NCBI GenBank assembly: GCA_963815145.1
Contig: CAWFFS010000010.1
Location: 178,860-242,859 of the forward strand
DNA: 64,000 nucleotides
Reading direction: 5' to 3'
DNA from: an uncultured delta proteobacterium
Lineage (GTDB): Bacteria; Desulfobacterota; DSM-4660; Desulfatiglandales; HGW-15
Both the position numbers and the translations under genes were made by a program. The notes under the pieces are model-generated. The model was not told the DNA's origin, made no database searches, and worked only from the letters and a program-made list of their open reading frames with translations. Below, piece after piece: positions 18,117 to 38,735 of this stretch. The number at the start of each line of letters is the position of its first letter. The stretch's first letter is position 1.

Positions 18117-19746
18117 CTATACAAACTCTATAAGTGAAGGATCATAATCCTCCACCTTTTCATATCCCAGGAGATTCAACAGGGTCGAGGCTACGTTTGA
18201 CAGGCCTTTTTCTTTCAGATCGGCCATTCTGTATTCACCCTTGTATTGCGGATCAAAAATAACAAACGGGACGGGGTTAAGGGTGTGCGCTGTCTTTACG
18301 CTCTTCTTCCCGTCCTTTCCAATGGAATACATAATATCCGCATTACCGTGATCTGCTGTCACCACGGCGATGCCTTCCATTTTTTCCACTGCATTGAGAA
18401 GCGCCCCGAGACATTTGTCAACTGTTTCAACTGCCGTTACTGCGGCATTCATTACACCGGTATGCCCTACCATGTCCCCATTGGCAAAATTAAGCCTTCC
18501 AAAACGATAGTCCCCTTCACTCATAAGTTTGATAACAGTGTCCTTTATCTCAAAGGCCTTCATTTCAGGTGCATGGTCAAACTCTATCCTGTCCGATGGT
18601 ATTTCTATATACTTTTCGAGTCTTTCATCTATATAACCGGACCTGTTCCCGTTCCAGAAATATGTAACATGACCGAATTTTTGCGTTTCGGATACGGCAA
18701 AGGATTTGACACCGGCAGCGCAGAGATATTCGCTGACAGTGCGATCAATGTCCGGAGGCCGGACCAGGAAATTCGGCGGGAGATGGGTATCACCGTCATA
18801 TTCCATCATTCCTGCATAGAGTATATCAGGAAGAGGCCCTCGCTCGAACTCGCTGAAATCCTTTTCAGTAAACGCCCTTGATATCTCTATTGCCCTGTCT
18901 CCTCTGAAATTGAAAAAAATTACCGAATCGCCATCCTTTACCGGGCCGACAGGATTATCGTTGCCATCCACCACGACAAAGGGATCAAGATACTGGTCTG
19001 TAATATGAGGATCTTCAGTATAATAGGTTTGTACTGCCTCCGATGCCGAATGAAATTTTCTTGCCTTTCCGAGTACATGTGCATCCCATCCTCTCTTTAC
19101 TATACTCCAGTCGGCATTGTACCTGTCCATGGTTACCTTCATCCGTCCACCGCCCGAGGCTATCGCATAATCCAGATTTTTATCCTTTCTGATCTTTTCC
19201 AGCCTTTCCTGGGTGGGGATTACATAATCGAGTGCGCTTTTTTCGCCCACATCTCTTCCGTCGAGAAGGACATGAACCCGAACTTTTTTAAATCCTGAGA
19301 CAGCACATTTGTCTATAAGGATATTAAGCTGATCGATATGTGAATGAACATTCCCGTCTGAAAGCAGCCCTATGAAATGGAGAGCCCCCCTTTTCCGAAC
19401 GAGCTGCTATCGTCTTCCATAATTTTGACTTAAAAACCTTTCCGGTTCGAAGGGCACTGTTTACAAGGCTTGCGCCCTGTTCAAAGACTCTTCCGGCACC
19501 AAGGGCATTGTGACCTACTTCGCTGTTGCCCATATCACCATCACTCGGAAGACCTACGGCCCTGCCATGCGCATTCAGTTGCGTATAGTACTTTGTTTTT
19601 AATAATTTTTTCAACACAGGTGCATTGGCAAGATAAACGGCGTTGCTGTCATCATCTTTTCCAATGCCAATACCGTCCATTATGATCAGGAGCAGAGGCC
19701 CTTTTCTGCCACTGAAGTTTTTTAAGGATTTCAATTCTAATGACAT
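18117..19746 (-). CDS. gpmI: 2,3-bisphosphoglycerate-independent phosphoglycerate mutase, frame broken in a C6/G6 run (fragments 19324..19746 and 18117..19250)
   Basis: N-terminal fragment has 'LLLIIMDGIGIG' and 'GNSEVGHNALGAGR'. After G6 (19385-19390) the adjacent frame reads 'ALHFIGLLSDGNVHSHIDQL...VHVLLDGRDV', continuous with the 377-aa ORF ('ADHGNAD'). Confidence 0.92.
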
Positions 19747-20026: not shown

Positions 20027-20068
20027 AAAAAAAGACCCCGTCAGGGCAACCCTGACAGGGTCTTTTTT
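20027..20068 (-). terminator. intrinsic terminator downstream of the 25883->20156 minus-strand operon (hairpin usable on both strands)
   Basis: AAAAAAA-GACCCCGTCAGGG-caac-CCTGACAGGGTC-TTTTTT. The stem is 12 bp with one mismatch and has A/T runs on both sides. Confidence 0.65.
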
Positions 20069-20155: not shown

Positions 20156-21298
20156 TCACAGACTTACAGTAAAAAGATTTTCAGACATCTTCTTGATTTT
20201 ATTAATATTTATATCCACTCCGAGTCCGACACCCATTAAGGGGTATGCCTTTCCCCCATAGCCAAATGATACATCACTGTCAGTAATATTTTCAGCCAGA
20301 AGCAGATTGTCATATGACCCGTCATAATAAACCGAGTCATTTGAAAGCAGGTTGAGTATACGCCCTGCAGACGACAGCAGTCCTGATTCCCCAAGCTGGC
20401 AGCCTATCTGGAATTTCATTTTTGAGTTCCGGATATAATTAATCATCGAAAGTGAACGCCTCAACCCGCCGCACTTTGAAACCCTTATATTTATCATCTG
20501 GTAATGCCTGTTTTCATTCAAAAGATATAAATCATCAAGGGTGCAGGCTGACTCATCTGCCATAAGATCTATATTGTATTTTTTTGTTTCACTGCTCAGT
20601 TTCTCGATATCGGGGTCTTCCGGAGACATCGGCTGCTCAAGGATTTTTACTTTATAATCGTTTATCAGCTCTATATGCCTTAGGCCTGTTTCATATGTCC
20701 ATACCCCGTTTACATCGGCCTTCAGGTCATACCCATCATGAAAAATCCTGTCCACCGCAGTGAGAAGCATCTGGTTATGAGAATAATCTCTTCCCAGTTT
20801 AAGTTTCAGTTTATTGATGCCCAGGCTTTTTATCTTCCTGCATACATGATTCACCAGTTCCTCCGTCCCAAGCGGAATAGCGGCGCCATAACTGATGGAA
20901 TCGGTGTAATAATCCTTTGCGAACAGATCCAGCACCCGTTTTTTTTCAGATCTTGCATAGGCATCCAGTAAGGACATTTCCAGTGCGCATATGGAGGCAT
21001 TCATTCCTCTTGTGGAGGGAAGAGCATCGATCAGGCGCCAAATCTGATCCACAGTCTCCAATTCCCATGGGAAATCTTCTCTGCCTGTCAGATACCTGAT
21101 GTTTTCTTCTGCAGTTTCCAGGGTCTCACCGGTTACATAGGGCCTCGGAGCACCCTCTCCGCAACCTAATACTTCTCCTTTTTCATTGACCAGAATTACT
21201 ACAATATTCCTGACCCATAACCGTTTCCTGAGTGAATGTGAAAATTCTCCTGCGAAAGGCAGAATGACCCTTGCGATAATTGCTTTTTTAATTCGCAT
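20156..21298 (-). CDS. enolase-superfamily enzyme, MLE subgroup (dipeptide epimerase / N-acylamino-acid racemase / OSBS-like)
   Basis: Catalytic and metal motifs in order: 'KLKLKLG' (KxK), 'DVNGVW', 'ILEQPM', 'LMADES', 'NIRVSKCGG'. Confidence 0.75.
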   Translation of the reverse strand: MRIKKAIIARVILPFAGEFSHSLRKRLWVRNIVVILVNEKGEVLGCGEGAPRPYVTGETLETAEENIRYLTGREDFPWELETVDQIWRLIDALPSTRGMNASICALEMSLLDAYARSEKKRVLDLFAKDYYTDSISYGAAIPLGTEELVNHVCRKIKSLGINKLKLKLGRDYSHNQMLLTAVDRIFHDGYDLKADVNGVWTYETGLRHIELINDYKVKILEQPMSPEDPDIEKLSSETKKYNIDLMADESACTLDDLYLLNENRHYQMINIRVSKCGGLRRSLSMINYIRNSKMKFQIGCQLGESGLLSSAGRILNLLSNDSVYYDGSYDNLLLAENITDSDVSFGYGGKAYPLMGVGLGVDININKIKKMSENLFTVSL

Positions 21299-23300
21299 TT
21301 AAAAACGGGCTCCCCGGATTGTTTTGAACATCCTGCGGATGAACGGGCAGATCAATAATGAATTTTGCCCCTTCATTCACTTTACTTTTCACCTCTATCG
21401 TTCCGCAATGGTCCTGTATATTCTGGTGAACAATGAAAAGTCCCAGCCCTGTCCCGCTGTGATCCGTGCTCTTATATTTTGTTGAAAAGTATGGATCGAA
21501 TATTTTATTGAGCAGGTTCTCCGGTATCCCTTCACCACTGTCCTCAACTATTATGCGGATACCTAGTCCGTTTTTCATTTCTGCGTTTCTTTTTGTGGTT
21601 ATTTTTATCAATCCGTGTTCAGGTGTAAATTCCACTGCATTGGAGAGGAGATTTAATATCACCTGTTTGATTTTTTCGGAATCAATCCATACCTCTTTTA
21701 TCAACGGATCAAAATCCTTTTCTACCCTGATCTTTTTAACATTGCTCTTTGGAGAAACAAGAAGAACCATCTTTGCTATTATTTCATGCAGATTATTTGA
21801 TTCAAACCTGGATTCTCTGGTATTTACCAGATCAAGAAGCTCGGAAATCAGGTCATTGACCCTCTCTGTTTCCTCAAGGGCAATCTTGTGAAAATTTACC
21901 CTGTATTCCTCATCATCCAGTTTATAGGGCAGCAACTGTATGAATGTACCGATGGCTGTCATGGGGTTTTTGATTTCATGTGCCAGCCTTGCCGCCAGAT
22001 CACCTAAAAACGCCAGCTTTTCGGCTCTGCTCAAGAGTGCGTGAGAGCGCTTGAGTTCCAGCATCTGTTCCTGAAGCTGCCTGTATAGCCTGGCATTTTC
22101 AATGGCTATCGCTATCTGTGGTGAAAAAATTTCCAGGGTCCGGCGTGTTTCTATTGGCACACCATCCACTTCAAGGGAATCTGTCGCAATAACACCAATA
22201 ACCTTTGCCCGTGTGATCAGGGGGACTACGTGGACGGCACGGGACTTTCCATAGCTCAGTACTATGTTCTCTTTTCGAAGACTTGAGTTATTAACATCCG
22301 GGATGTATTCCGCTTTCCCTGAGTTGGTGACCCTTACGAGCATGTTGTTGACCCTGTGCAGGGGTATCTGATATTTCATTATTTCATCAGGGATTTCACC
22401 GTCGAACCCTGTTGCATGAAGATATTCAAGACAGCCTTGCTGCCCATTTACAAGGAGTATCAACGCCCTTCGTATCCTGCACACATTTGACAATGTGTTC
22501 ATTATTACTGTTAAGAGATCATCCAGATTCAATACTGAAAGGATAGCCTTGCCTGTCTCCTGTATGGCCTGGAGCTGTTTTATTTTATTGTTCAGGTCGA
22601 CATTAAGCGTGTTTACTTCTTCAAATTTTTGTTCAATGACCTGTTTGTCTCTTTCCATCTCTTTGATAGTCTCATTGAGCACTGATTTGGATGAAAAGAA
22701 TCTCGAAAAAAATATTTTAACATTGTTCTGAGAAGACCATTTCAGATGATACTCGCAATAGGGATCACCATTGAAAAAACATCTCTTTTCTTCTAGGGAT
22801 ATGGGCGAACCTCCCCAGATGAGCGGAATGTAGCTGTATGATCCCTGGTTATAAAGGCATATGTCCTTTGAAACCTCCATCCCCGGTGTCCAGTGAAGCC
22901 TCACAACAGCGTTGTTATTGTTTAATTCGACAAGTTGAACCTTTTTATTTCTGTTCCATTTGTCATTAATCCGCTGCAGGTTTTTTAAACCTTTTTTGAT
23001 CGTCCAGAAGGCCTTTACTATTATCCTCTGACCGTATCCGAGACGAAAGTTCTCAGCTGCGTATCTCGCTATATGAAACGCGGTCAGATCATCCTTAAAA
23101 AATATTCTTGCCCTTTCATATAATTTTGCTGCAATCGAGCACGAAATCCAGTTTGCTTCATCACATAAGTAGGATTCTGCATCAGGAAGCGAATCTATTT
23201 CAGGATCAAGGTCCTTCAGCATGTATTCCAGATCGCCGCTGTTAGTTTTTACATAGTTGATAATGGCCCTGGAATTTATGCAGCTGACTTCTTTTTTCAT
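21288..23300 (-). CDS. sensor histidine kinase (unknown N-terminal sensor domain, coiled coil, GAF, HisKA, HATPase)
   Basis: H-box 'LAARLAHEIKNPMTAI'. ATPase 'NLLSNAVEFTP...VEDSGEGIP...GTGLGLFIV'. GAF-like 'LDDLLTVIMNTLSNV...VVPLITRAKVIGVIATDS'. Confidence 0.85.
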   Translation of the reverse strand: MKKEVSCINSRAIINYVKTNSGDLEYMLKDLDPEIDSLPDAESYLCDEANWISCSIAAKLYERARIFFKDDLTAFHIARYAAENFRLGYGQRIIVKAFWTIKKGLKNLQRINDKWNRNKKVQLVELNNNNAVVRLHWTPGMEVSKDICLYNQGSYSYIPLIWGGSPISLEEKRCFFNGDPYCEYHLKWSSQNNVKIFFSRFFSSKSVLNETIKEMERDKQVIEQKFEEVNTLNVDLNNKIKQLQAIQETGKAILSVLNLDDLLTVIMNTLSNVCRIRRALILLVNGQQGCLEYLHATGFDGEIPDEIMKYQIPLHRVNNMLVRVTNSGKAEYIPDVNNSSLRKENIVLSYGKSRAVHVVPLITRAKVIGVIATDSLEVDGVPIETRRTLEIFSPQIAIAIENARLYRQLQEQMLELKRSHALLSRAEKLAFLGDLAARLAHEIKNPMTAIGTFIQLLPYKLDDEEYRVNFHKIALEETERVNDLISELLDLVNTRESRFESNNLHEIIAKMVLLVSPKSNVKKIRVEKDFDPLIKEVWIDSEKIKQVILNLLSNAVEFTPEHGLIKITTKRNAEMKNGLGIRIIVEDSGEGIPENLLNKIFDPYFSTKYKSTDHSGTGLGLFIVHQNIQDHCGTIEVKSKVNEGAKFIIDLPVHPQDVQNNPGSPFLNAN

Positions 23301-23320
23301 ATAACGATGCCTTTTACAGA

Positions 23321-24916
23321 TTACAGATTTAAAACCCTGCTGCTCCTCCGGCCTGATAATTCGTCTTTTTTCGCCTTTCTCAGGATGGAAAGAAAACCCC
23401 TCAATAAATCCAGGTTATCTCCATTTACTTTAATGATATTTCTCTCCCCGTCTTTATAGCAACTATCGGGTATAACAGGGTCAAATAATGATGATGCCGG
23501 CAGTCTGAAAAACGGTACCATTTTCAAAAAAGCCGTCTGTAATTTTTCTGTATTATTGGACAGCCTGTAAATTTTGTCGATATAGGACATGACCGTCTCA
23601 AAGGTAAGATCCCTGGATGGTTTCCTCACAACATTCTGCCCGAATACCGTATCATCATCAAATACTACATCAGGTAATGATATCGCCAGGTCATGTATTT
23701 TTGTTTTGGGATAAACATGACATTCTCCGACCTTGAAGACATGCCCTGCCCTGCCGCTGAACTCCGTGAGTTTTTTTGCAAAATTATAGCTTTCTGCCAG
23801 ATCGTCTTCCGTATCGCCAGGATAACCCGCAATCATAAAAATCATCAGGGGAATTTCATATTCGGCCGCCTTTTTGAATATGGCCAGAGTATTGCTCAGA
23901 TATCTTTCATAATGCGCCCGGTCTTTTATCTTATTCATTCTGCGCAGGGTATTATAGCTTGCGGATTCGAAACCAAGCACAAGGGTTCCGCATACATCAT
24001 GGATTTCCGGGATTATCTCGGGATCAAAAACATCACATCGTGTTTCAAAGTGGATCTTCATTCCGAGTTTCCTGATAGCCGGCACAAGATCAAAGGACCT
24101 GAACAATGCATCGCACACTACTATGTCTTTTGCCCTGCAATGATCGGCAAGATTTCTCAGATCCGACTCAATAATCTCTGATGGTACAGCTTTTCTGGAA
24201 GGTCTGATATAATCTTCCATGCAAAAATTACACCTGTAAGAGCATCCCCGGCTGAAAGAATACGGAAGGACATCATAGGCCGCAGGATTTTTTAACAGGG
24301 TCAGGTCGAGGGGCGCCTTGTCATTTAAATCGAATCTTTCGCTATTATGTGTAAAAACCAAGGTTTCATTATCCTTCCATACAAGTCCGGATATTTTTTT
24401 ATCTCTGGGATCTCTGCCGCTCGTCAGTCTTTCAATTATCTTCAGCGCAGGTATCTCACCCTCTCCCCTTACAATAAGATCAACCGCATCCGTCCTTTGG
24501 AAAATATCTTCATAATAAAGCGTAGGAAAATATCCGCCCAGAAATAAAAATATTTCAGGGTTGTTCTTTTTAATAATTTCACACAAATGAACACTTTCTT
24601 CTGCCTGTGATATGGCAGTACATGAAATGCCGATTCCTGCGGGTTTGAGCAGTGATATATCCTCAAGTAATTCATCATATATTCTATCTTTACCACTTTT
24701 GTTTAAGGGAAGCCCATAATCCATTGGAATTGATATAACTTTTATATCGATATCAGGATTATTCTTTTTGACATAACCGGCAATTTCCAGAAGTGGAAGA
24801 GGATAAGCCGGGACATACATACCTATGTTTTTTGAAACCGGTTCCAGAAGCAGTATCAAAATATACTCCTTTCCTTTATAGGGGTTATCTCCATGACGAT
24901 CAGACATGCCTTTCAA
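23321..24916 (-). CDS. B12-binding domain-containing radical SAM protein
   Basis: The N-terminal Rossmann-like B12-binding region precedes 'SRGCSYRCNFCMED' (CxxxCxxC). Confidence 0.8.
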   Translation of the reverse strand: MKGMSDRHGDNPYKGKEYILILLLEPVSKNIGMYVPAYPLPLLEIAGYVKKNNPDIDIKVISIPMDYGLPLNKSGKDRIYDELLEDISLLKPAGIGISCTAISQAEESVHLCEIIKKNNPEIFLFLGGYFPTLYYEDIFQRTDAVDLIVRGEGEIPALKIIERLTSGRDPRDKKISGLVWKDNETLVFTHNSERFDLNDKAPLDLTLLKNPAAYDVLPYSFSRGCSYRCNFCMEDYIRPSRKAVPSEIIESDLRNLADHCRAKDIVVCDALFRSFDLVPAIRKLGMKIHFETRCDVFDPEIIPEIHDVCGTLVLGFESASYNTLRRMNKIKDRAHYERYLSNTLAIFKKAAEYEIPLMIFMIAGYPGDTEDDLAESYNFAKKLTEFSGRAGHVFKVGECHVYPKTKIHDLAISLPDVVFDDDTVFGQNVVRKPSRDLTFETVMSYIDKIYRLSNNTEKLQTAFLKMVPFFRLPASSLFDPVIPDSCYKDGERNIIKVNGDNLDLLRGFLSILRKAKKDELSGRRSSRVLNL

Positions 24917-25883
24917 GCAGAGGCCGTAAAACCGGTCCTGCTGTACCTCTTATTGTTGCAGGCGCCCTGAATGATCGGGAACCGCACAATTGAGGATATT
25001 TTTTCCACTGGTACCATTGCTCCGGATAGTGATATATGAACTGCTCAAGCACCTTAAGGACTGCCTCGCCTGTTGTAATGGAATTACTGCTGCTAATCAT
25101 CCTCAGCATATCATCATGGGAATACACTATCAATTCATACTTGGAAAGGCTGTATCTGTGAATTACTCCAAATAACACTTCGGCACCCGATCTTTTCTGC
25201 ATTATATTAATAGTCCTGTCCAGGCCTGTAATCTGCCCGAGAAATGTTGTCCTTTTCCTGTCCGAAGGCCTCCACTCATCTATCTCGTCACACTGGGTCA
25301 CAAGGACACGGTTTTCCTTTAATTCCGATATGGCATGATGAAATACATTTCCGGATTTTTCAGCATCAATCATTTTTATATTATATTTTTCGGCCTGGGC
25401 AAAAACTTTTTTTCGCAATTGAGCGGTCTTAAATCTGGCTATCATTGATATATTTATATTTTTAATTGCAAGCAGTGTCGGGATAAACTCAATGGCTCCG
25501 TAATGACCGGTTATGAGAATAACGCCCCTGCCATTTAAAAGGGCTTTTTTTATCAGGGCCAGATCGTTACATATAACACTGGAAGACAGGAAGCCTGTAG
25601 CCTTTCTTTTGCTTTCAAAGGCAATATAAAGCTTCTCATAATAATGATAAAGGATTCCATTAAAAACCCTTTTGAGAGTCTTATCCCTGTCATCATCGTT
25701 CCTTATCATACGCATGACCTCAAGGACTGATTTTTCTATGACCTGTTTTTCACGGTTCTTTATGAAGAAATAGATCCTGCCCAAAAAAAATATATAAAAC
25801 CTTGCCAGTTTCCATCCAAACACCATATAAAGAAAAATGTTAACTCTCGCCTGTAAAAAATTACTCAATCTAAAAATTCTCAT
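24900..25883 (-). CDS. lysophospholipid acyltransferase family protein (LpxL/HtrB-like lipid A biosynthesis acyltransferase fold)
   Basis: N-terminal TM helix. 'ITGHYGAIE' (HX4D/E acyltransferase motif). C-terminal 'YPEQWYQWKKY' resembles the LpxL 'PEQY.W.H.R.K' tail. Confidence 0.7.
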   Translation of the reverse strand: MRIFRLSNFLQARVNIFLYMVFGWKLARFYIFFLGRIYFFIKNREKQVIEKSVLEVMRMIRNDDDRDKTLKRVFNGILYHYYEKLYIAFESKRKATGFLSSSVICNDLALIKKALLNGRGVILITGHYGAIEFIPTLLAIKNINISMIARFKTAQLRKKVFAQAEKYNIKMIDAEKSGNVFHHAISELKENRVLVTQCDEIDEWRPSDRKRTTFLGQITGLDRTINIMQKRSGAEVLFGVIHRYSLSKYELIVYSHDDMLRMISSSNSITTGEAVLKVLEQFIYHYPEQWYQWKKYPQLCGSRSFRAPATIRGTAGPVLRPLLERHV

Positions 25884-25936: not shown

Positions 25937-25952
25937 GTCAATATTTATGCCA
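25937..25952 (-). promoter_or_regulatory. candidate sigma-54 (-24/-12) promoter for the acyltransferase operon (imperfect)
   Basis: The minus strand reads TGGCATaaataTTGAC. The -24 TGGCAT and the spacing are correct, but the -12 element is GA instead of the conserved GC. It lies 55 nt upstream of the start at 25883. Confidence 0.3.
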
Positions 25953-26110: not shown

Positions 26111-26149
26111 TGCACAAATTTTTGTGCACGCTGCACATTTTTATGTGCA
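26111..26149. promoter_or_regulatory. tandem palindromic operator/UAS pair (TGCACA-N6-TGTGCA x2)
   Basis: TGCACAaattttTGTGCA (26111-26128) and TGCACAtttttaTGTGCA (26132-26149), with centres 21 bp apart. The same arrangement recurs at 38038-38077. Confidence 0.55.
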
Positions 26150-26358
26150 AAAAACCTGATTTTTTTATAATATGAAGATTAGCTGTTCTATAATTTTTGA
26201 TTTTTTTAATCATATAATTTGCGTTCAAGTTAGAATTAGCCTAGATTATTGTTTAAGTTAATTGTATACAGTCAAAATGTATTTAAAAAATGTTTAATTC
26301 CTACCTGAACCCAGCAATTGCATTTGATTATTTTTTTTACCGGAAAGGAAAACTTTTA

Positions 26359-27699
26359 ATGGGTAATAAAGCCTCCATACTTGTTGTCGATGATGAATAC
26401 GGCGTTCTGCAATCATTTAAAATGGTATTGGGCTCGGAATATAATATATTTCTCGCCGAGACAGGTGAAAAGGCGGTAAGAATATTTTCCGAAAACGCAA
26501 TTGACCTGATATTGCTTGATATCATCCTGCCGGATTCCAATGGCATTGATCTATTGAAAAAATTCAAGGAAACCGATCCTGATACAGAGGTCATCATGGT
26601 AACAGCTGTAAAAGAGGTAAAAACTGCCGTAGAAGCCATGAGATTCGGTGCATATGATTATATTGTCAAACCTTTTGTTGTTGAAGATATTATCAACATA
26701 ATAAACAGGGTACTGGAAAAGCACCGTTTGCAGAGGGAGGTTACATATCTCAAGGATGAACTGGAAAGATTTCAGCCATTTGAAAAGATTGTGGGGCAGG
26801 ACCCTAAGATGCTGGAAATTTTTGAATTGATATCCACCATAGCCGAAAGCGATGGAGCAGTATTGATACAGGGAGAAAGCGGCACGGGCAAAGAGCTGGT
26901 AGCAAGGGCGGTCCACAGGCTTGGTGCAAGAAAAAATCAACCCTTTGTGGTCATTAATTGCGCGGCAATTCCGGCAACTCTTATGGAGAGTGAAATTTTC
27001 GGCCATAATAAAGGGGCTTTTACCGGTGCATCGGCATTAAAGATAGGAAAACTGGAAATAGCCAACAAGGGGATTGTATTTTTAGATGATGTGGATACAC
27101 TTGACATAGGAATGCAGGCAAAATTGTTAAGGGTCATCCAGGAGAAAGAATTCGAAAGACTTGGCAGCACCAAGCTTATCCGGATAAATGTTCGTTTTAT
27201 AGCAGCATCAAATAAAAACCTTAAACACCTTGCCGAAACAGGACTGTTTCGTGAGGATCTTTTTTACAGGCTTAACGTATTTCCAGTTGAAATTCCGCCC
27301 CTCAGAGAGAGACGGGGAGATATCCGTCTATTGCTCGATCATTTTCTGAACCTTTATTCCAAACAGAATGGAAAACCCTTAAAGAAATTCTCAAACAGTG
27401 CAGCAAAGCTCCTTACAGATCATTATGAATGGCCGGGTAATGTTCGTGAGCTTCAAAACCTTGTGGAACGACTTGCTACCATTACCAGGGGAAATGTGAT
27501 CTTCCCTAAAAACATTTCGAATTTCAGCATCAATAAAAAGGAAATCAGGGATGTACCTCTGAAAGATGCTGTCGATATCTTTGAAAAAGAATTTATAGAT
27601 GATGTATTGAAACGGGTAAGAGGCAGCAAGAAGGATGCCGCACGTATCCTGGGAATACATCGTAATACGCTTCAAAAGAAATTGACTGGCCAGACGTAA
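26359..27699 (+). CDS. sigma-54-dependent Fis-family response regulator (NtrC-type bEBP)
   Basis: REC 'ILVVDDEYG...DLILLDIILPDSNG'. AAA+ Walker A 'GESGTGKE'. 'GAFTGA' sigma-54 contact loop. C-terminal HTH 'AARILGIHRNTLQKKL'. Start taken at 'MGNKASILVVDD'. Confidence 0.92.
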   Translation: MGNKASILVVDDEYGVLQSFKMVLGSEYNIFLAETGEKAVRIFSENAIDLILLDIILPDSNGIDLLKKFKETDPDTEVIMVTAVKEVKTAVEAMRFGAYDYIVKPFVVEDIINIINRVLEKHRLQREVTYLKDELERFQPFEKIVGQDPKMLEIFELISTIAESDGAVLIQGESGTGKELVARAVHRLGARKNQPFVVINCAAIPATLMESEIFGHNKGAFTGASALKIGKLEIANKGIVFLDDVDTLDIGMQAKLLRVIQEKEFERLGSTKLIRINVRFIAASNKNLKHLAETGLFREDLFYRLNVFPVEIPPLRERRGDIRLLLDHFLNLYSKQNGKPLKKFSNSAAKLLTDHYEWPGNVRELQNLVERLATITRGNVIFPKNISNFSINKKEIRDVPLKDAVDIFEKEFIDDVLKRVRGSKKDAARILGIHRNTLQKKLTGQT

Positions 27700-27716: not shown

Positions 27717-28913
27717 ATGAAAACTGATTTTACCATTCCACGTTCTGAGATAAAAAACAGAATCGCCGCCATCCAGAAACACATGCAGGTAAACAATATA
27801 GACGCACTGTGTGTTCTCCAGCAGGCAGACCTCTATTATTTCAGCGGAACAGCACAGAACGGTCTCCTTTTCATCCCTGCAGAAGGAGCGCCCATTCTTT
27901 TCATTATCAAGTATCTTCCAAGGGCCCAAAAAGAATCACCCGTAGATGATATAATAGGCATAAGATCCATCAGGGATGTGCCGGGATTACTAATGGATTA
28001 TCTCGGGCATAATATAGAGACTCTGGCATTTGAATTCGATGTGCTGCCTGTAAGGGATTTCGAGTACTATAAAACCCTTTTCTCTGCTAAAAGGTATGTA
28101 GACGGATCCGGGTTCATCTTAAACACACGGATGATAAAGTCTCCCTGGGAAATAGAACAGATGGAAAAGAGTGCAGAATTGTCACGCAGGACATTTGAGT
28201 ATATCCGATCTTCAATCAGACCTGGATACACTGAGATTGAATTTTCCGGTATGTATGAGACCTTTGCAAGGAAACACGGGCATGACGGTCTTTTAAGGGT
28301 AAGAAATTATCGGGAAAAGGCTTATAACTGGCATATATTGAGCGGTAAAAGCGGTGGAATCGTAGGCGTACTCAATGCCCCGGCGAGCGGCGAGGGGACA
28401 TCACCCGCCTTTCCAAACGGAGCAGGCAACAGGATCATTCAGTCAAATGAGCCAATTATGGTCGACCTGGGAACGGTTATAAATGGTTATCATACTGACG
28501 AAACAAGGATGTTTGCCATAGGTTCCATGCCGGATGAAGCCATGAACGCCTGCATGGCATCAATCGATATTCATGATTACATACTCGACCACACCAGACC
28601 CGGTATTCCTGTACACGAGCTTTATGATATCTCAGTGAAACGTGCCAAAACCCTTGGTGTCTTTTCCCGGTACCTTGGCCCGGAAGGTGAAAAGGTTATC
28701 TTTGTCGGGCATGGCATCGGTCTGGAGCTGGTGGAGCAGCCAATTATCGCCAGGGGAAAAGAGACTGTGCTTGAGCCGGGGATGACTTTCAGCCTTGAGC
28801 CGAAGCTGGTTTACAAAGACCGGTTTTCAGCAGGAATCGAAAGCGTTTTTGTTGTCACTGAATCCGGATGCAGGCTTATAAGCCGGGTTCCTGTTGACAT
28901 ATTTATATGCTGA
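27717..28913 (+). CDS. M24-family metallopeptidase (Xaa-Pro aminopeptidase/creatinase fold)
   Basis: 'VDLGTVINGYHTDETRMF', 'GHGIGLELVEQP', 'FSLEPKL' (pita-bread metal ligands). Confidence 0.8.
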   Translation: MKTDFTIPRSEIKNRIAAIQKHMQVNNIDALCVLQQADLYYFSGTAQNGLLFIPAEGAPILFIIKYLPRAQKESPVDDIIGIRSIRDVPGLLMDYLGHNIETLAFEFDVLPVRDFEYYKTLFSAKRYVDGSGFILNTRMIKSPWEIEQMEKSAELSRRTFEYIRSSIRPGYTEIEFSGMYETFARKHGHDGLLRVRNYREKAYNWHILSGKSGGIVGVLNAPASGEGTSPAFPNGAGNRIIQSNEPIMVDLGTVINGYHTDETRMFAIGSMPDEAMNACMASIDIHDYILDHTRPGIPVHELYDISVKRAKTLGVFSRYLGPEGEKVIFVGHGIGLELVEQPIIARGKETVLEPGMTFSLEPKLVYKDRFSAGIESVFVVTESGCRLISRVPVDIFIC

Positions 28914-37455: not shown

Positions 37456-37746
37456 TTACTCTTTTTCAACAAAGATCAGGTCTTTTATTAATTCAAACTT
37501 TTTCTGACCGATACCCTTCACTTTCATTAAATCCTCTATCGTTTTAAATTTTCCATTTTTTTCTCTATATTCAATTATTCTCTCTGCATATTTTTTCCCG
37601 ATTCCTTTCAGCTTGATTAGCTCCTGAACGGTTGCCTTGTTAAGGTCAACCTTTACTGCATCGACAGCCTGCACAACTCCTGCTGCTGCAAATACGATAA
37701 CAATACACAAAACAATAATTCTTCTCAATTTAAGCATCTCCGTCAT
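37456..37746 (-). CDS. ComEA-family helix-hairpin-helix DNA-binding protein
   Basis: AAGGAGG RBS lies 8 nt upstream of the ATG at 37746. N-terminal TM/signal segment. Tandem HhH 'VDLNKATVQELIKLKGIGKKYAERII...EDLMKVKGIGQKKFELI'. Confidence 0.8.
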   Translation of the reverse strand: MTEMLKLRRIIVLCIVIVFAAAGVVQAVDAVKVDLNKATVQELIKLKGIGKKYAERIIEYREKNGKFKTIEDLMKVKGIGQKKFELIKDLIFVEKE

Positions 37747-38037
37747 TGACAAAGCCTCCTTTTTCTAAAAGGTTGATAAAATCCATCACAGAAATACTAT
37801 GCCTGTAATGGTAACATTTTGATGTTTTTTTAATTTTTAAAAGGAAAGCAATTATGCTAATTACAATTTTGGTGCCAATCCTGGAGTCTCGTTACAAAAA
37901 TTAAAAACAAAGTATAGCCACTTCAAATATACCCCATAATATCAGACATATACAATTTACCTTAACCATAATAATTTATATAGTTCACTGAACCGGTGAT
38001 TTTTTTTAAAAAAAAAACGTAGAATTTCTTAGCTACT

Positions 38038-38077
38038 TGCACATATTTATGTGCATCAATGCACACAAATATGTGCA
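38038..38077. promoter_or_regulatory. second tandem TGCACA-N6-TGTGCA palindrome pair (candidate bEBP UAS)
   Basis: TGCACAtatttaTGTGCA (38038-38055) and TGCACAcaaataTGTGCA (38060-38077), with centres 22 bp apart. They lie about 100 bp upstream of the -24/-12 element at 38154-38170. Confidence 0.6.
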
Positions 38078-38198: not shown

Positions 38199-38735
38199 AT
38201 GAGTGATGCAGACAATATCCAGAGAAATGATGAGATAATAAAAATATTAAGAGCCATAACACCATTAAGTCAGATAAGAGATGAGGATATCAGAGGACTC
38301 CTGAAATCCAGCAAAATGATAAAGTATGAACCAAACGAAGTAATTATCTCTGAAGGTGATTACAGCTGCTGGATTTACTTTCTGATAAAGGGAGAAGCAG
38401 GAATTCAAAAAGAAGGTGAAATAATAAATACCCTGACGCGATGTGGAGATATTTTTGGTGAAATGGGCATAATCGATAATTCTCCACGGTCAGCCACAAT
38501 TGTTGCAGTCACCAGTGCAGTATGTCTGGCAATTGACACATCATATGCTGAAAAATTAAGAGGTAATGAGAAAAATGCCTTTAACTCAATTTTATACAGA
38601 ATTTTTTCAGAAATTCTTACTGAAAGACTCAGACGTATGGATGAAGAGCTTATCAGGATAAAAAATGAAAATTACCGTCTTATAACCGAACTTGAAGTGA
38701 TAAAATCCGGTGTGAAATTGGAGATACTCCCCTGA
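38199..38735 (+). CDS. cyclic nucleotide-binding domain protein with C-terminal coiled coil (no DNA-binding domain)
   Basis: cNMP phosphate-binding cassette 'FGEMGIIDNSPRSATIVA' and beta-roll 'VIISEGDYSCWIYFLIKGE'. The C-terminus 'RLRRMDEELIRIKNENYRLITELE' is coiled-coil rather than HTH. Confidence 0.8.
   Translation: MSDADNIQRNDEIIKILRAITPLSQIRDEDIRGLLKSSKMIKYEPNEVIISEGDYSCWIYFLIKGEAGIQKEGEIINTLTRCGDIFGEMGIIDNSPRSATIVAVTSAVCLAIDTSYAEKLRGNEKNAFNSILYRIFSEILTERLRRMDEELIRIKNENYRLITELEVIKSGVKLEILP

Follow-up and report, generated by a model that had tools for sequence, protein, structure and literature searches.

A conserved sensor kinase, acyltransferase and enolase-superfamily gene cassette with a divergent sigma-54 activator in uncultured Desulfobacterota

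Four same-strand genes in the window, by which we mean the whole 64,000-nucleotide stretch of DNA that was analysed, code for an acyltransferase, a B12 radical SAM enzyme (rSAM), a histidine kinase and an enolase-superfamily enzyme, and run from a sigma-54-type promoter to a strong terminator. Comparison of their sequences among genomes identifies them, with the activator gene that diverges from them, as a real, widely conserved and previously undescribed cassette whose home is in uncultured sulfate-reducing bacteria; its conserved core, by the same comparison, is the activator, the acyltransferase, the kinase and the enolase-superfamily enzyme, and the rSAM is optional. We tentatively propose that this is an autoregulated, ligand-controlled cassette that would make an acylated, epimerised amino-acid- or dipeptide-type lipid and would be the self-amplifying core of a wider regulon. 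The features of the cassette are these.

26359..27699, plus strand: NtrC-type sigma-54 activator, REC, AAA+ (GAFTGA) and HTH_8 (Pfam REC, Sigma54_activat, HTH_8)
26111..26149, no strand: presumed upstream activating sequence made up of two palindromic operators, TGCACAAATTTTTGTGCA and TGCACATTTTTATGTGCA, starts 21 bp apart
25937..25952, minus strand: sigma-54-type -24/-12 promoter, TGGCATAAATATTGAC; the operator pair lies 159 nt away, and the acyltransferase ATG ~54 nt downstream
24900..25883, minus strand: LpxL/LpxM/PatA-family acyltransferase, 327 aa, PF03279, H127-X4-E132, hydrophobic N-terminus
23321..24859, minus strand: cobalamin-binding radical SAM enzyme, 512 aa, B12-binding and Radical_SAM domains, C225-X3-C229-X2-C232; longest ORF to 24916
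21288..23300, minus strand: cytoplasmic histidine kinase, 670 aa, sensor 1-190, coiled linker, GAF 257-402, HisKA (H441), HATPase_c
20156..21298, minus strand: enolase-superfamily enzyme, MLE subgroup, 380 aa, MR_MLE_C, two lysines and metal ligands complete
20027..20068, no strand: bidirectional intrinsic terminator, 13-bp G+C-rich stem, TTG loop, T7, closing the operon

The open reading frames at 24900-25883(-), 23321-24916(-), 21288-23300(-) and 20156-21298(-) were confirmed, as were the co-directional run that the original prediction had ended at the hairpin of 20027-20068, the hairpin itself, the families and motifs that it had given to the acyltransferase, the rSAM and the enolase-superfamily enzyme, and the divergent sigma-54 activator alongside. 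The activator has its longest ORF from 26290, with the ATG at 26359 as the probable start (MGNKASILVVDD...). All three junctions had been taken as overlapping or nearly abutting. Two stand, a 20-nt gap at 23300/23321 and an 11-nt overlap at 21288/21298, but the acyltransferase and rSAM genes are separated by a 40-nt gap and do not overlap by 17 nt, because all rSAM orthologues are 512 aa long and an AGGAG Shine-Dalgarno sequence lies 6 nt 5' of the TTG at 24859.

Conservation was judged in 80 species-level genomes reached via the rSAM gene, 41 loci having enough flank; all genomes compared were MAGs or SAGs. An identical five-gene block was present in 39 of these 41 loci, each from a different species, whereas the genes that flank it in the window were found at only 3-6 of the 80 loci. 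Since the five-gene order is kept while the flanks vary, the adjacency is not random, and the prediction of an operon, which hung on co-conservation in other genomes, is not refuted. The layout is kept across dozens of uncultured Desulfobacterota species. In 53 of 54 loci the kinase gene has enzyme genes on both sides, and the acyltransferase is coupled to the enolase-superfamily enzyme in just as many. Departures include one locus (L011) without an adjacent activator, in which the enzymes accompany a hybrid kinase that retains the zinc-site residues, and three (L029, L041, L053) that share the same inversion of the enolase gene. Through these rearrangements the enzymes remain together with a kinase of this type. 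Database and literature searches returned no NCBIfam equivalog, PADLOC or Rfam match, no paper and no solved structure for the combination, which bears out the earlier impression that it is not a described pathway; all NCBIfam matches of the cassette enzymes are far under the equivalog cut-offs.

The kinase is, from its sequence and predicted structure, a cytoplasmic small-molecule sensor with an XylR/DmpR-type ligand pocket followed by a GAF domain. Pfam recognized GAF, HisKA and HATPase_c, and no transmembrane segment was found in it, the top 19-residue hydropathy being 1.51. The N-terminal sensor is predicted to have the XylR-A/V4R/H-NOX fold; its AlphaFold model (pLDDT 81) was matched by Foldseek to H-NOX, PoxR, MopR, DmpR and the palmitate-binding Bet3. 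No heme ligands were found in it. The residues C148, E171, C174 and C182 are invariant in 61 kinase orthologues, and their 23/3/8 spacing is that of the XylR zinc site C149/E172/C175/C183.

The activator orthologues are ~64% identical, carry an invariant receiver Asp77 and diverge from the acyltransferase gene in 50 of 55 evaluable loci. The operator consensus, TGCACA-N6-TGTGCA, occurs twice at the cassette as two 18-bp palindromes, in a layout that places them about 160-190 bp upstream of the sigma-54 promoter; the copies in the window are exact matches, and their observed count was reached in 0 of 100 shuffles. Sites of the form TGCAC-N8-GTGCA are present in 48 of 55 orthologous intergenic regions, mostly paired and 21-22 bp apart, and TGGCAY-N5-TTGAG/T lies at a matching distance (about 160-195 nt) in 41 of 48 orthologous loci. 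In six loci (L088, L105, L113, L144, L160, L197) a second sigma-54 promoter points at the activator gene. Retention of operator pairs and promoter across loci supports the view that the genes form one predicted sigma-54-driven operon with a divergent activator. The same architecture occurs at a second place in the window.

38038..38077, no strand: second paired operator, TGCACATATTTATGTGCA / TGCACACAAATATGTGCA
37862..37877, minus strand: second sigma-54 promoter, TGGCACCAAAATTGTA, with the second operator pair at a distance of 161 nt
37456..37752, minus strand: secreted ComEA-like protein of 98 aa, DNA-binding helix-hairpin-helix type, HHH_3 (92 bits), candidate second activator target

In the metagenomes 120 operator pairs were found, only ~17 of them at cassettes, and sigma-54 promoters lie beside 30% of the operator-pair sides as against 1.5% of control windows. 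These sites were assigned to this activator by motif alone, and paralogous activators of 38-43% identity are near three of them. The genes downstream code for a GAF-MshEN-T2SSE pilus ATPase, PilZ, VpsT-like, REC and SLATT proteins and outer-membrane beta-barrel proteins. The kinase had been called dedicated to the operon; this is not demonstrable and, because the paired operator and sigma-54 promoter recur at the ComEA-like gene and at many unrelated metagenome genes, the two-component system probably is not dedicated to it.

These features also suit a signal synthase with its receptor, in which the enzymes would make a hydrophobic autoinducer of acyl-amino-acid type, the kinase pocket would bind it and the activator would amplify the operon along with the pilus, competence and c-di-GMP genes. 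The logic would resemble quorum sensing and be comparable with phcBSR or CqsA/CqsS-LuxO. We consider this possible but not probable. The kinase gene keeps its place between the enzyme genes and stays with them even in the activator-less L011, the cytoplasmic sensor belongs to a kind that takes hydrophobic ligands, promoters in both directions would give positive autoregulation, and the candidate regulon is broad and of a lifestyle type. In addition, the tailoring genes vary, with two rSAM types and a PP-loop enzyme, in a way reminiscent of diversifying signals, and the sensor domains of paralogous kinases are ~59% identical, which suggests a common ligand. However, no conserved exporter adjoins the cassette in the loci compared, the PF03279 enzymes known to date all acylate membrane glycolipids, and the sensor domain is the more conserved part (~58% vs 41-48% for the cassette enzymes), the opposite of signal-receptor pairs that diversify together.

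The enolase-superfamily enzyme is, judging by its active site, probably a racemase or epimerase. Among 55 orthologues K/R165-x-K167 (K167 invariant), D195, E221, D248 (53/55) and K275 (53/55) are kept, and the nearest solved relatives are the dipeptide epimerases 3jva, 3r0k, 3q45 and 1tkk and the N-succinyl-Arg/Lys racemase 2p88, the best PDB profile matches scoring 118-154 bits. An amino-acid substrate is not proven, since the 'DxD' stretch of dipeptide epimerases is altered to D326-G-S-Y-D330. This kinship with L-Ala-D/L-Glu-type epimerases and N-succinyl-amino-acid racemase (NSAR) would also fit salvage or catabolism of D-amino-acid peptides or N-acyl amino acids, by acylation, racemisation and deacylation as in the NSAR pathway or in murein-peptide recycling, with the kinase sensing the substrate as XylR-type sensors classically do. 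Metallo-hydrolase genes are repeatedly found next to the cassette: in five loci (the window, L033, L201, L202, L206) an M24 peptidase immediately follows the activator, and in 17 of 44 an M20 amidohydrolase is convergent to the enolase gene. Yet these hydrolases are of two different types, lie outside the operon and are not family-wide, their occurrence following clade-level synteny. We doubt a salvage role also because the acyltransferase is of the membrane LpxL/PatA type and not a soluble GNAT succinyltransferase, no transporter is associated with the cassette, and catabolic regulators do not usually control pilus and c-di-GMP genes.

The acyltransferase is the only lipid link in the cassette. 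It matches PF03279 Lip_A_acyltrans with 53 bits (cut-off 22), H127-X4-E132 is invariant in 52 orthologues, and its AlphaFold model (pLDDT 78) has structural matches only to LpxM 5kn7 (E 3.6e-12) and PatA. The O-acyltransferases known from amino lipids (OlsA, GlsA, OlsF) belong to the OlsA type; the literature on them that we looked at does not mention LpxL, HtrB or PF03279, and no OlsB/GlsB-type N-acyltransferase was found in the cassette. JGI annotations label the acyltransferase orthologues 'KDO2-lipid IV(A) lauroyltransferase'. From that name, the PF03279 membership, the HX4E motif and LpxM as best structural match, the operon could serve inducible secondary acylation of lipid A or another glycolipid. 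The acyltransferase would by itself remodel the outer-membrane lipid from inside its own two-component operon, for which pmrCAB is a precedent, with the enolase-superfamily enzyme and the rSAM unrelated or supporting. This seems to us quite improbable. The acyltransferase reached just 16-44 bits with the LpxL/LpxM/LpxP equivalog models, whose cut-offs are 248-540, a PDB sequence search with it gave no match to LpxM or PatA, and lipid A chemistry offers no role for the near-invariant coupling to the enolase-superfamily enzyme. Where the original prediction spoke of inducible envelope chemistry, an acylated, methylated, epimerised amino-acid-type product is compatible with all the evidence, but the 'lipid-A-like' alternative lacks specific support, 44 bits standing against LpxL equivalog cut-offs of at least 248.

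The rSAM has a class B architecture. Its best NCBIfam matches are C/P-methylases, all under cut-off, its closest solved relative is the peptidyl-glutamine C-methylase QCMT (9CCB) with only 32 bits, and its C-terminal ~150 aa are conserved but unassigned. When contexts were anchored on the acyltransferase, three of seven (L201, L203, L204) had no rSAM and one (L208) an unrelated B12-rSAM. The predicted three-enzyme combination, co-conserved in 39 of the 41 evaluable loci found through the rSAM, is therefore not obligatory, and since some lineages do without the rSAM, 'methylated' does not belong to the core description of the product. A RiPP or lipopeptide cluster, with a ribosomally made precursor peptide that rSAM and epimerase would alter before acylation, is very improbable and largely refuted because no precursor gene was found: weak rSAM matches to RiPP C-methyltransferases (NCBIfam ApyD, rSAM_ocin_1) and QCMT, and the 25 loci in which the acyltransferase gene is preceded by a leader of 180-580 nt that could in principle conceal a small gene, stand against the lack of a conserved small ORF, leaders of only 41-80 nt in the window and 15 other loci, the lack of a peptidase, transporter or recognition-element gene, and an optional rSAM. 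Enzymes of the enolase superfamily, moreover, require a free alpha-carboxylate, and none is known to act as a RiPP epimerase.

According to the proposal of an autoregulated lipid cassette, the kinase would bind a hydrophobic cytoplasmic ligand and phosphorylate Asp77 of the activator, which would fire the sigma-54 promoter and raise kinase and enzymes together. The enzymes would share a single small-molecule substrate on the inner side of the membrane. The LpxL/PatA-fold enzyme would transfer a fatty acyl chain, and the enolase-superfamily enzyme, in the manner of dipeptide epimerases and N-acyl-amino-acid racemases, would invert a centre adjoining a free carboxylate by abstracting its alpha-proton. 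Lineages that have the cobalamin rSAM may use it for a decoration of their own, methylation of an unactivated carbon, and others may add a PP-loop adenylating enzyme. The result would be a lipid of amino-acid or dipeptide type, acylated and epimerised (D-configured); our best guess is that it is membrane-bound, and it may serve in the envelope or be what the kinase senses. Since surface, pilus and c-di-GMP genes probably make up a wider set under the control of this activator, the cassette would be the self-amplifying core of a lifestyle switch and not an isolated operon.

Each part of the cassette has known counterparts from which it departs. The sensor shares with the 'A' domains (V4R type) of XylR, DmpR, MopR and PoxR the fold class, the Cys-X22-Glu-X2-Cys-X7-Cys spacing, a cytoplasmic location and sigma-54-dependent control, but in those proteins it is fused directly to the AAA+ activator whereas here it heads a histidine kinase; it is matched structurally better by H-NOX than by PoxR or MopR, and the Pfam V4R and XylR_N models did not match it. 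With L-Ala-D/L-Glu epimerases and N-succinyl-amino-acid racemases the enolase-superfamily enzyme has in common the two catalytic lysines and three metal ligands, at only ~25% identity and below all NCBIfam cut-offs, and its context of acyltransferase and kinase is unlike murein-recycling or NSAR operons. The acyltransferase resembles LpxL/LpxM and mycobacterial PatA in Pfam family, HX4E dyad, predicted fold and hydrophobic N-terminus; it falls far under every LpxL/LpxM/LpxP equivalog cut-off, and it is coupled to a kinase and an enolase-superfamily partner, which the lipid A and PIM pathways are without. QCMT, TokK, CysS, HpnR and PhpK, the weak best relatives of the rSAM, have the same N-terminal B12-binding Rossmann domain and CxxxCxxC core, but no subfamily cut-off of the cobalamin C-methyltransferases is reached, the C-terminus of ~150 aa is unique and the gene is optional.

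As a system, the cassette can be set beside pmrCAB (eptA-pmrA-pmrB), in which a membrane-lipid enzyme is co-transcribed with a sensor kinase, the operon is autoregulated and the regulator controls other loci; that system has an OmpR-type regulator and a periplasmic sensor where the cassette has a sigma-54 activator and a cytoplasmic one, and the cassette adds epimerase and rSAM chemistry. In phcBSR of Ralstonia and CqsA-CqsS-LuxO of Vibrio (sigma-54) an enzyme that modifies a small molecule is likewise encoded with a sensor kinase, and the Vibrio signal output passes through a sigma-54 activator to lifestyle genes that include comEA-type competence genes. Their enzymes, however, belong to unrelated families, and their kinases are membrane receptors for extracellular signals.

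The four minus-strand genes of the original prediction were borne out at their coordinates, and the HX4E, CxxxCxxC, and KxK/D/E/D/K motifs noted in their products are all there and are kept among the orthologues. Together with the divergent activator they form a cassette whose features lie in the window as follows.

20027-20068: terminator, a 13-bp stem and then T7, as had been predicted for a strong terminator
20156-21298, minus strand: enolase-superfamily enzyme of the MLE subgroup (MR_MLE_C)
21288-23300, minus strand: sensor kinase, GAF-HisKA-HATPase after residues 1-250, which have no domain assignment
23321-24916 (longest ORF), minus strand: cobalamin-binding radical SAM enzyme (rSAM), B12-binding and radical SAM domains
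24900-25883, minus strand: acyltransferase of the lipid-A type (PF03279)
26290-27699, plus strand: sigma-54 activator, REC-AAA+-HTH_8

The acyltransferase and rSAM genes had been read as overlapping. Since the rSAM orthologues are all 512 aa and an AGGAG Shine-Dalgarno sequence stands before a TTG at 24859, the rSAM starts at this TTG and the first junction is a 40-nt gap instead.

A genome scan anchored on the rSAM alignment gave 80 loci, each of a different species and nearly all from Desulfobacterota MAGs, the carriers including Desulfatiglans, Desulfobacterales, Eth-SRB2 (MAG locus L017), one Seep-SRB2 MAG, and one single-cell genome. In tblastn with the window proteins, the order divergent activator, acyltransferase, rSAM, kinase, enolase enzyme was found in 39 of the 41 sufficiently flanked loci, while the window neighbours PdxA, UvrA, M24, iPGM, and POR were found in just 2-6 of the 80. 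Thus random adjacency of the genes, the outcome that would have spoken against the original prediction, is excluded. L011, a locus examined in detail, is a rearranged variant in which the three enzymes adjoin a hybrid kinase whose sensor is of the same type and no activator is near; its inverted enolase gene is also seen in L029, L041, and L053. The rSAM anchor biased this census, and a second set of contexts was fetched via acyltransferase homologues. Among these, L201 (a 6.48-Mb contig), L203, and L204 have acyltransferase, kinase, and enolase genes without the rSAM and share the window's outer synteny. L205 and L206 include the 512-aa rSAM, L202 has this rSAM together with another B12-rSAM of 456 aa whose gene runs antisense between those of the kinase and the enolase enzyme, and L208 has this second rSAM type alone. 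In addition, about 15 of 44 loci have a gene for a PP-loop ATP pyrophosphatase behind the enolase gene and in its orientation; the window lacks this gene and has its terminator at that place. Since the rSAM is absent or swapped in some acyltransferase-anchored loci and the PP-loop gene occurs in only part of the loci, the conserved core consists of the activator, acyltransferase, kinase, and enolase enzyme, and the cassette is this core plus variable add-on enzymes. No universal sixth gene was found, the PP-loop, M20, and DsrMK-like neighbours being restricted to clades.

Several of the accessory and neighbouring genes were looked at individually. The second rSAM (L202:11693-13063 and L208:4513-5886, both minus strand, 456-457 aa, placed between kinase and enolase genes in the opposite orientation) is unrelated to the first, the 25% identity between the two types being confined to the B12 domain. 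The PP-loop enzyme (L009:14734-15561 and about 14 other loci) is about 272 aa long, belongs to PF01171, has SxGxDS and CxxC motifs, and has its gene 18-55 nt past the end of the enolase gene. An M24 gene of the creatinase/prolidase type (window 27717-28913, plus strand) begins 18 nt past the activator, and likewise in L033, L201, L202, and L206, and an M20 amidohydrolase gene (L009:15860-17092, minus strand, and 16 other loci) is convergent to the enolase gene in 17 of 44 loci. These metallo-hydrolases beside the cassette could be functionally coupled to it or could just mark clade-level synteny. In the Seep-SRB2 MAG (L010:10007-12025) an alpha/beta-hydrolase (Hydrolase_4) takes the place of the kinase after an rSAM orthologue that is 61% identical, no acyltransferase lies upstream of this orthologue, and the contig stops shortly after the hydrolase gene. 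Next to the cassette, the cofactor-independent phosphoglycerate mutase gene of the window (18117-19746, minus strand) is broken by a 73-nt gap into ORFs of 140 and 377 aa and is one 543-aa gene in L201, L203, and L205; the split points to a frameshift, pseudogene, or assembly error in the window.

The acyltransferase scored 53.4 bits against PF03279 (gathering score 22.3) over profile positions 25-287 of 295, and its dyad, H127-YGAI-E132, is invariant in 52 orthologues. In Foldseek its AlphaFold model (pLDDT 78) matched LpxM (5kn7) with an E value of 3.6e-12 and a TM of 0.62 and PatA with a TM of 0.70 relative to the target, no other structural match being credible. Its domain, dyad, and fold make it a genuine PF03279 member. 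None of the NCBIfam equivalog or subfamily cut-offs for LpxL, LpxM, and LpxP was reached (best score 43.9 bits against 248; 21.6 bits against 297.8 for TIGR02207), and a PDB sequence search gave no match. Since the scores are far under every LpxL-type cut-off, the lipid-A-like product suggested originally has no specific support. The rSAM matched PF02310 (47.9 bits) and PF04055 (51.3 bits), its C225, C229, and C232 are invariant, and its architecture is that of class B, a B12-binding N-terminus followed by a CxxxCxxC core. It did not reach the curated cut-offs for PhpK, BchE, HpnR, HpnJ, KedN5, QCMT, or ladderane-type enzymes, the best NCBIfam score being 77 bits against 600 for PhpK and the others being lower relative to their cut-offs. 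Its best relatives, all of them weak, belong to the C- or P-methylases, and QCMT is the nearest among solved structures.

The enolase enzyme scored 91.7 bits against MR_MLE_C, and K/R165-x-K167, D195, E221, D248, and K275 are kept in 53-55 of its 55 orthologues; the two-base machinery of a racemase/epimerase is complete. Its nearest relatives are dipeptide epimerases and the B. cereus N-succinyl-Arg/Lys racemase and it is distant from all of them. No NCBIfam cut-off for the dipeptide epimerase, NSAR, OSBS, or MLE equivalogs was reached, the scores being 92 bits against 400 for DgcA, 87 against 335 for muconate cycloisomerase, 86.5 against 201 for MenC, and 68 against 500 for Ala-Glu epimerase. 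In dipeptide epimerases of the AEE family, an acidic D-x-D stretch after strand 8 binds the ammonium group of the substrate. This stretch is changed to DGSYD in the enolase enzyme: in the alignment with 3q45, 'YYD--FD' stands opposite 'YYDGSYD', and the conserved D326 and D330 are two residues wider apart.

The 407-bp intergenic region between the acyltransferase and activator genes has two exact 18-bp palindromes, TGCACA-N6-TGTGCA, whose starts are 21 bp apart (26111-26149), and a -24/-12 element, TGGCATAAATATTGAC, on the minus strand at 25937-25952, 159 nt from the palindromes. The palindromes are present, mostly paired, in 48 of 55 orthologous intergenic regions, and 41 of these 48 loci have a TGGCAY-N5-TTGAG/T promoter 160-195 nt downstream. 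The activator itself is of the sigma-54-dependent NtrC type, with receiver Asp77, an AAA+ domain with the GAFTGA loop, and HTH_8 in addition to the upstream palindromes and the -24/-12 promoter. In six metagenome cassettes (L088, L105, L113, L144, L160, and L197) a canonical sigma-54 promoter faces the activator gene, and therefore the operator is bidirectional and the operon and the activator are both autoregulated there. No such promoter is claimed for the window's own activator because the match by eye is poor, GG being replaced by GA. The -12 element of the operon promoters in the window and in the orthologous loci is consistently non-canonical (TTGAG/TTGAT and not TTGCW), and the activator-facing promoters of other loci have the canonical TTTGCT. 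The genes beyond the activator's 3' operator vary from locus to locus. The leader from promoter to acyltransferase gene is just about 40 nt in the window, and in about 25 loci, among them L008, L014, L017, and L020, it is 180-580 nt long and has conserved blocks such as GATTGATAGACATCA ... GGATGTTATCAATT. The long leaders have no conserved ORF. A riboswitch is unsupported, because RNAalifold on 14 leaders predicted no base pairs and no consensus structure and Rfam models matched one tRNA and nothing else in the window and four long-leader loci.

The kinase has no transmembrane segment, and its residues 1-190 have no Pfam match, V4R and XylR_N included, even at an E-value limit of 10. In Foldseek the AlphaFold model of this sensor (pLDDT 81) matched H-NOX domains best, with a TM relative to the target of up to 0.76, and also the domains by which PoxR, MopR, and DmpR sense phenol (E about 1e-3, with a low TM of 0.27-0.39) and the palmitate-binding Bet3. 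A heme H-NOX reading was ruled out because the ligands are absent and only the fold is in common: there is no Y-x-S-x-R motif and none of the three His in residues 1-200 is invariant. All 61 kinase orthologues have C148, E171, C174, and C182, and these zinc-site residues are kept even in the L011 kinase, which is 34% identical. From these findings the kinase is predicted to be a cytoplasmic sensor of a small hydrophobic ligand with an extra GAF domain. An exhaustive profile search showed that this sensor domain (window 22731-23300; proteins P0291-P0435) heads soluble kinases of diverse architectures in 1,097 clusters (50% identity) with E values of up to 1e-3, 84 of them with E values of up to 1e-30, and also one ABC-transporter fusion. 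It thus represents a large family of cytoplasmic kinase sensors without a Pfam model.

The original prediction had taken the kinase to be dedicated to the operon. It is probably not dedicated, because the same operator and promoter stand at a second gene in the window and at many non-cassette genes in metagenomes. A second exact operator pair (38038-38077) has a sigma-54 promoter 161 nt off (37862-37877, minus strand), and the gene behind it encodes a secreted ComEA-like helix-hairpin-helix protein (37456-37752, minus strand); no link of this gene to the cassette was found in other genomes. A cNMP-binding-domain gene (38199-38735, plus strand) diverges from the same region, where a weaker GG-N10-GC element is seen by eye. 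A metagenome search for the paired operator gave at least 120 loci, about 17 of those listed being cassettes, and at the other pairs listed sigma-54-type promoters lie 100-260 nt away on 30% of flanks compared with 1.5% of same-contig control windows. Among the matches listed, the genes that recur behind the sites encode pilus-type ATPases (GAF-MshEN-T2SSE), PilZ proteins, VpsT-like LuxR regulators, single receiver domains, SLATT (SLATT_4) proteins, hybrid kinases, giant secreted NHL/RHS-like proteins, and an outer-membrane beta-barrel protein. A cNMP-binding gene in L186 was set aside as a clue, being too distant from the operator. Going by the motif, the metagenome sites presumably belong to this particular activator, and the genes that bear them look like a candidate surface, pilus, and c-di-GMP regulon.

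Taken together, this is a conserved cassette under sigma-54 and two-component control with a predicted cytoplasmic ligand sensor. Its enzymes would make or modify one membrane-associated acylated molecule with a free carboxylate, the alpha-centre of which would be inverted, and the product might optionally be methylated by the rSAM or altered by the PP-loop enzyme. An acylated, alpha-inverted product would fit, in outline, the lipo-amino-acid guessed at originally. Such a product may be the kinase's own ligand, in a signal-and-receptor logic, as favoured by a kinase gene lying amid the enzyme genes, by enzymes and kinase staying together where the activator is lost, by variable tailoring genes, and by an apparently broad regulon. 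In its fullest form, the proposal is that the cassette makes a new, intracellularly sensed lipid signal, an acylated, epimerised molecule of the amino-acid type with methyl or other decorations that differ by lineage, which is bound by the XylR-type pocket of the kinase and its many paralogues and which, via the sigma-54 activator, governs genes for type IV pili, DNA uptake, and c-di-GMP in uncultured sulfate reducers; we offer this full chain as a long shot. Alternatively, the product may be an envelope component, by analogy with the logic of pmrCAB, and this is favoured by the fact that, to our knowledge, all PF03279 enzymes characterised to date act on a membrane glycolipid. A RiPP cluster was rejected since the leaders have no conserved small ORF and in 16 loci are 41-80 nt long, and PADLOC found no described defence system, its output being limited to weak matches with candidate PDC models and a generic AAA+ similarity of the RtcR type.

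The cassette is real and conserved and, as far as the literature search reached, undescribed: nothing relevant was found on the gene combination or the sensor type, and a search on amino-lipids gave known pathways only. It is a tightly conserved orphan module of abundant uncultured sediment sulfate reducers, namely Desulfatiglandales, uncultured Desulfobacterales, and Eth-SRB2, a bacterium that partners with alkane-oxidising archaea. If the product is the ligand of the kinase, it would be new signalling chemistry over pili, DNA uptake, and c-di-GMP in organisms with poorly understood cell-cell interactions, and if it is a lipid of the envelope, amino-lipid chemistry would gain an LpxL-family branch and there would be a new candidate biomarker. 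The parts are known and the combination is new, and its value lies in direct testability rather than in a proven new mechanism, because heterologous expression is open to every part: the promoter and operator, the sensor with its recognisable ligand pocket, and the enzymes, two to four in number.

As regards known systems, the described amino-lipid pathways use O-acyltransferases of the OlsA type, and neither OlsB/GlsB-type N-acyltransferase nor OlsA-type O-acyltransferase domains were found in the four operon proteins. Neither LpxL nor HtrB is mentioned in the publications examined on these pathways, and rSAM enzymes and racemases are absent from the 2026 review. GlsA was dropped as an LpxL-type precedent, since it has been described as homologous to OlsA and to the N-terminus of OlsF. 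On the sensory side the likeness is to XylR, whose zinc ligands, C149, E172, C175, and C183, have the same 23/3/8 spacing as C148, E171, C174, and C182 of the kinase.
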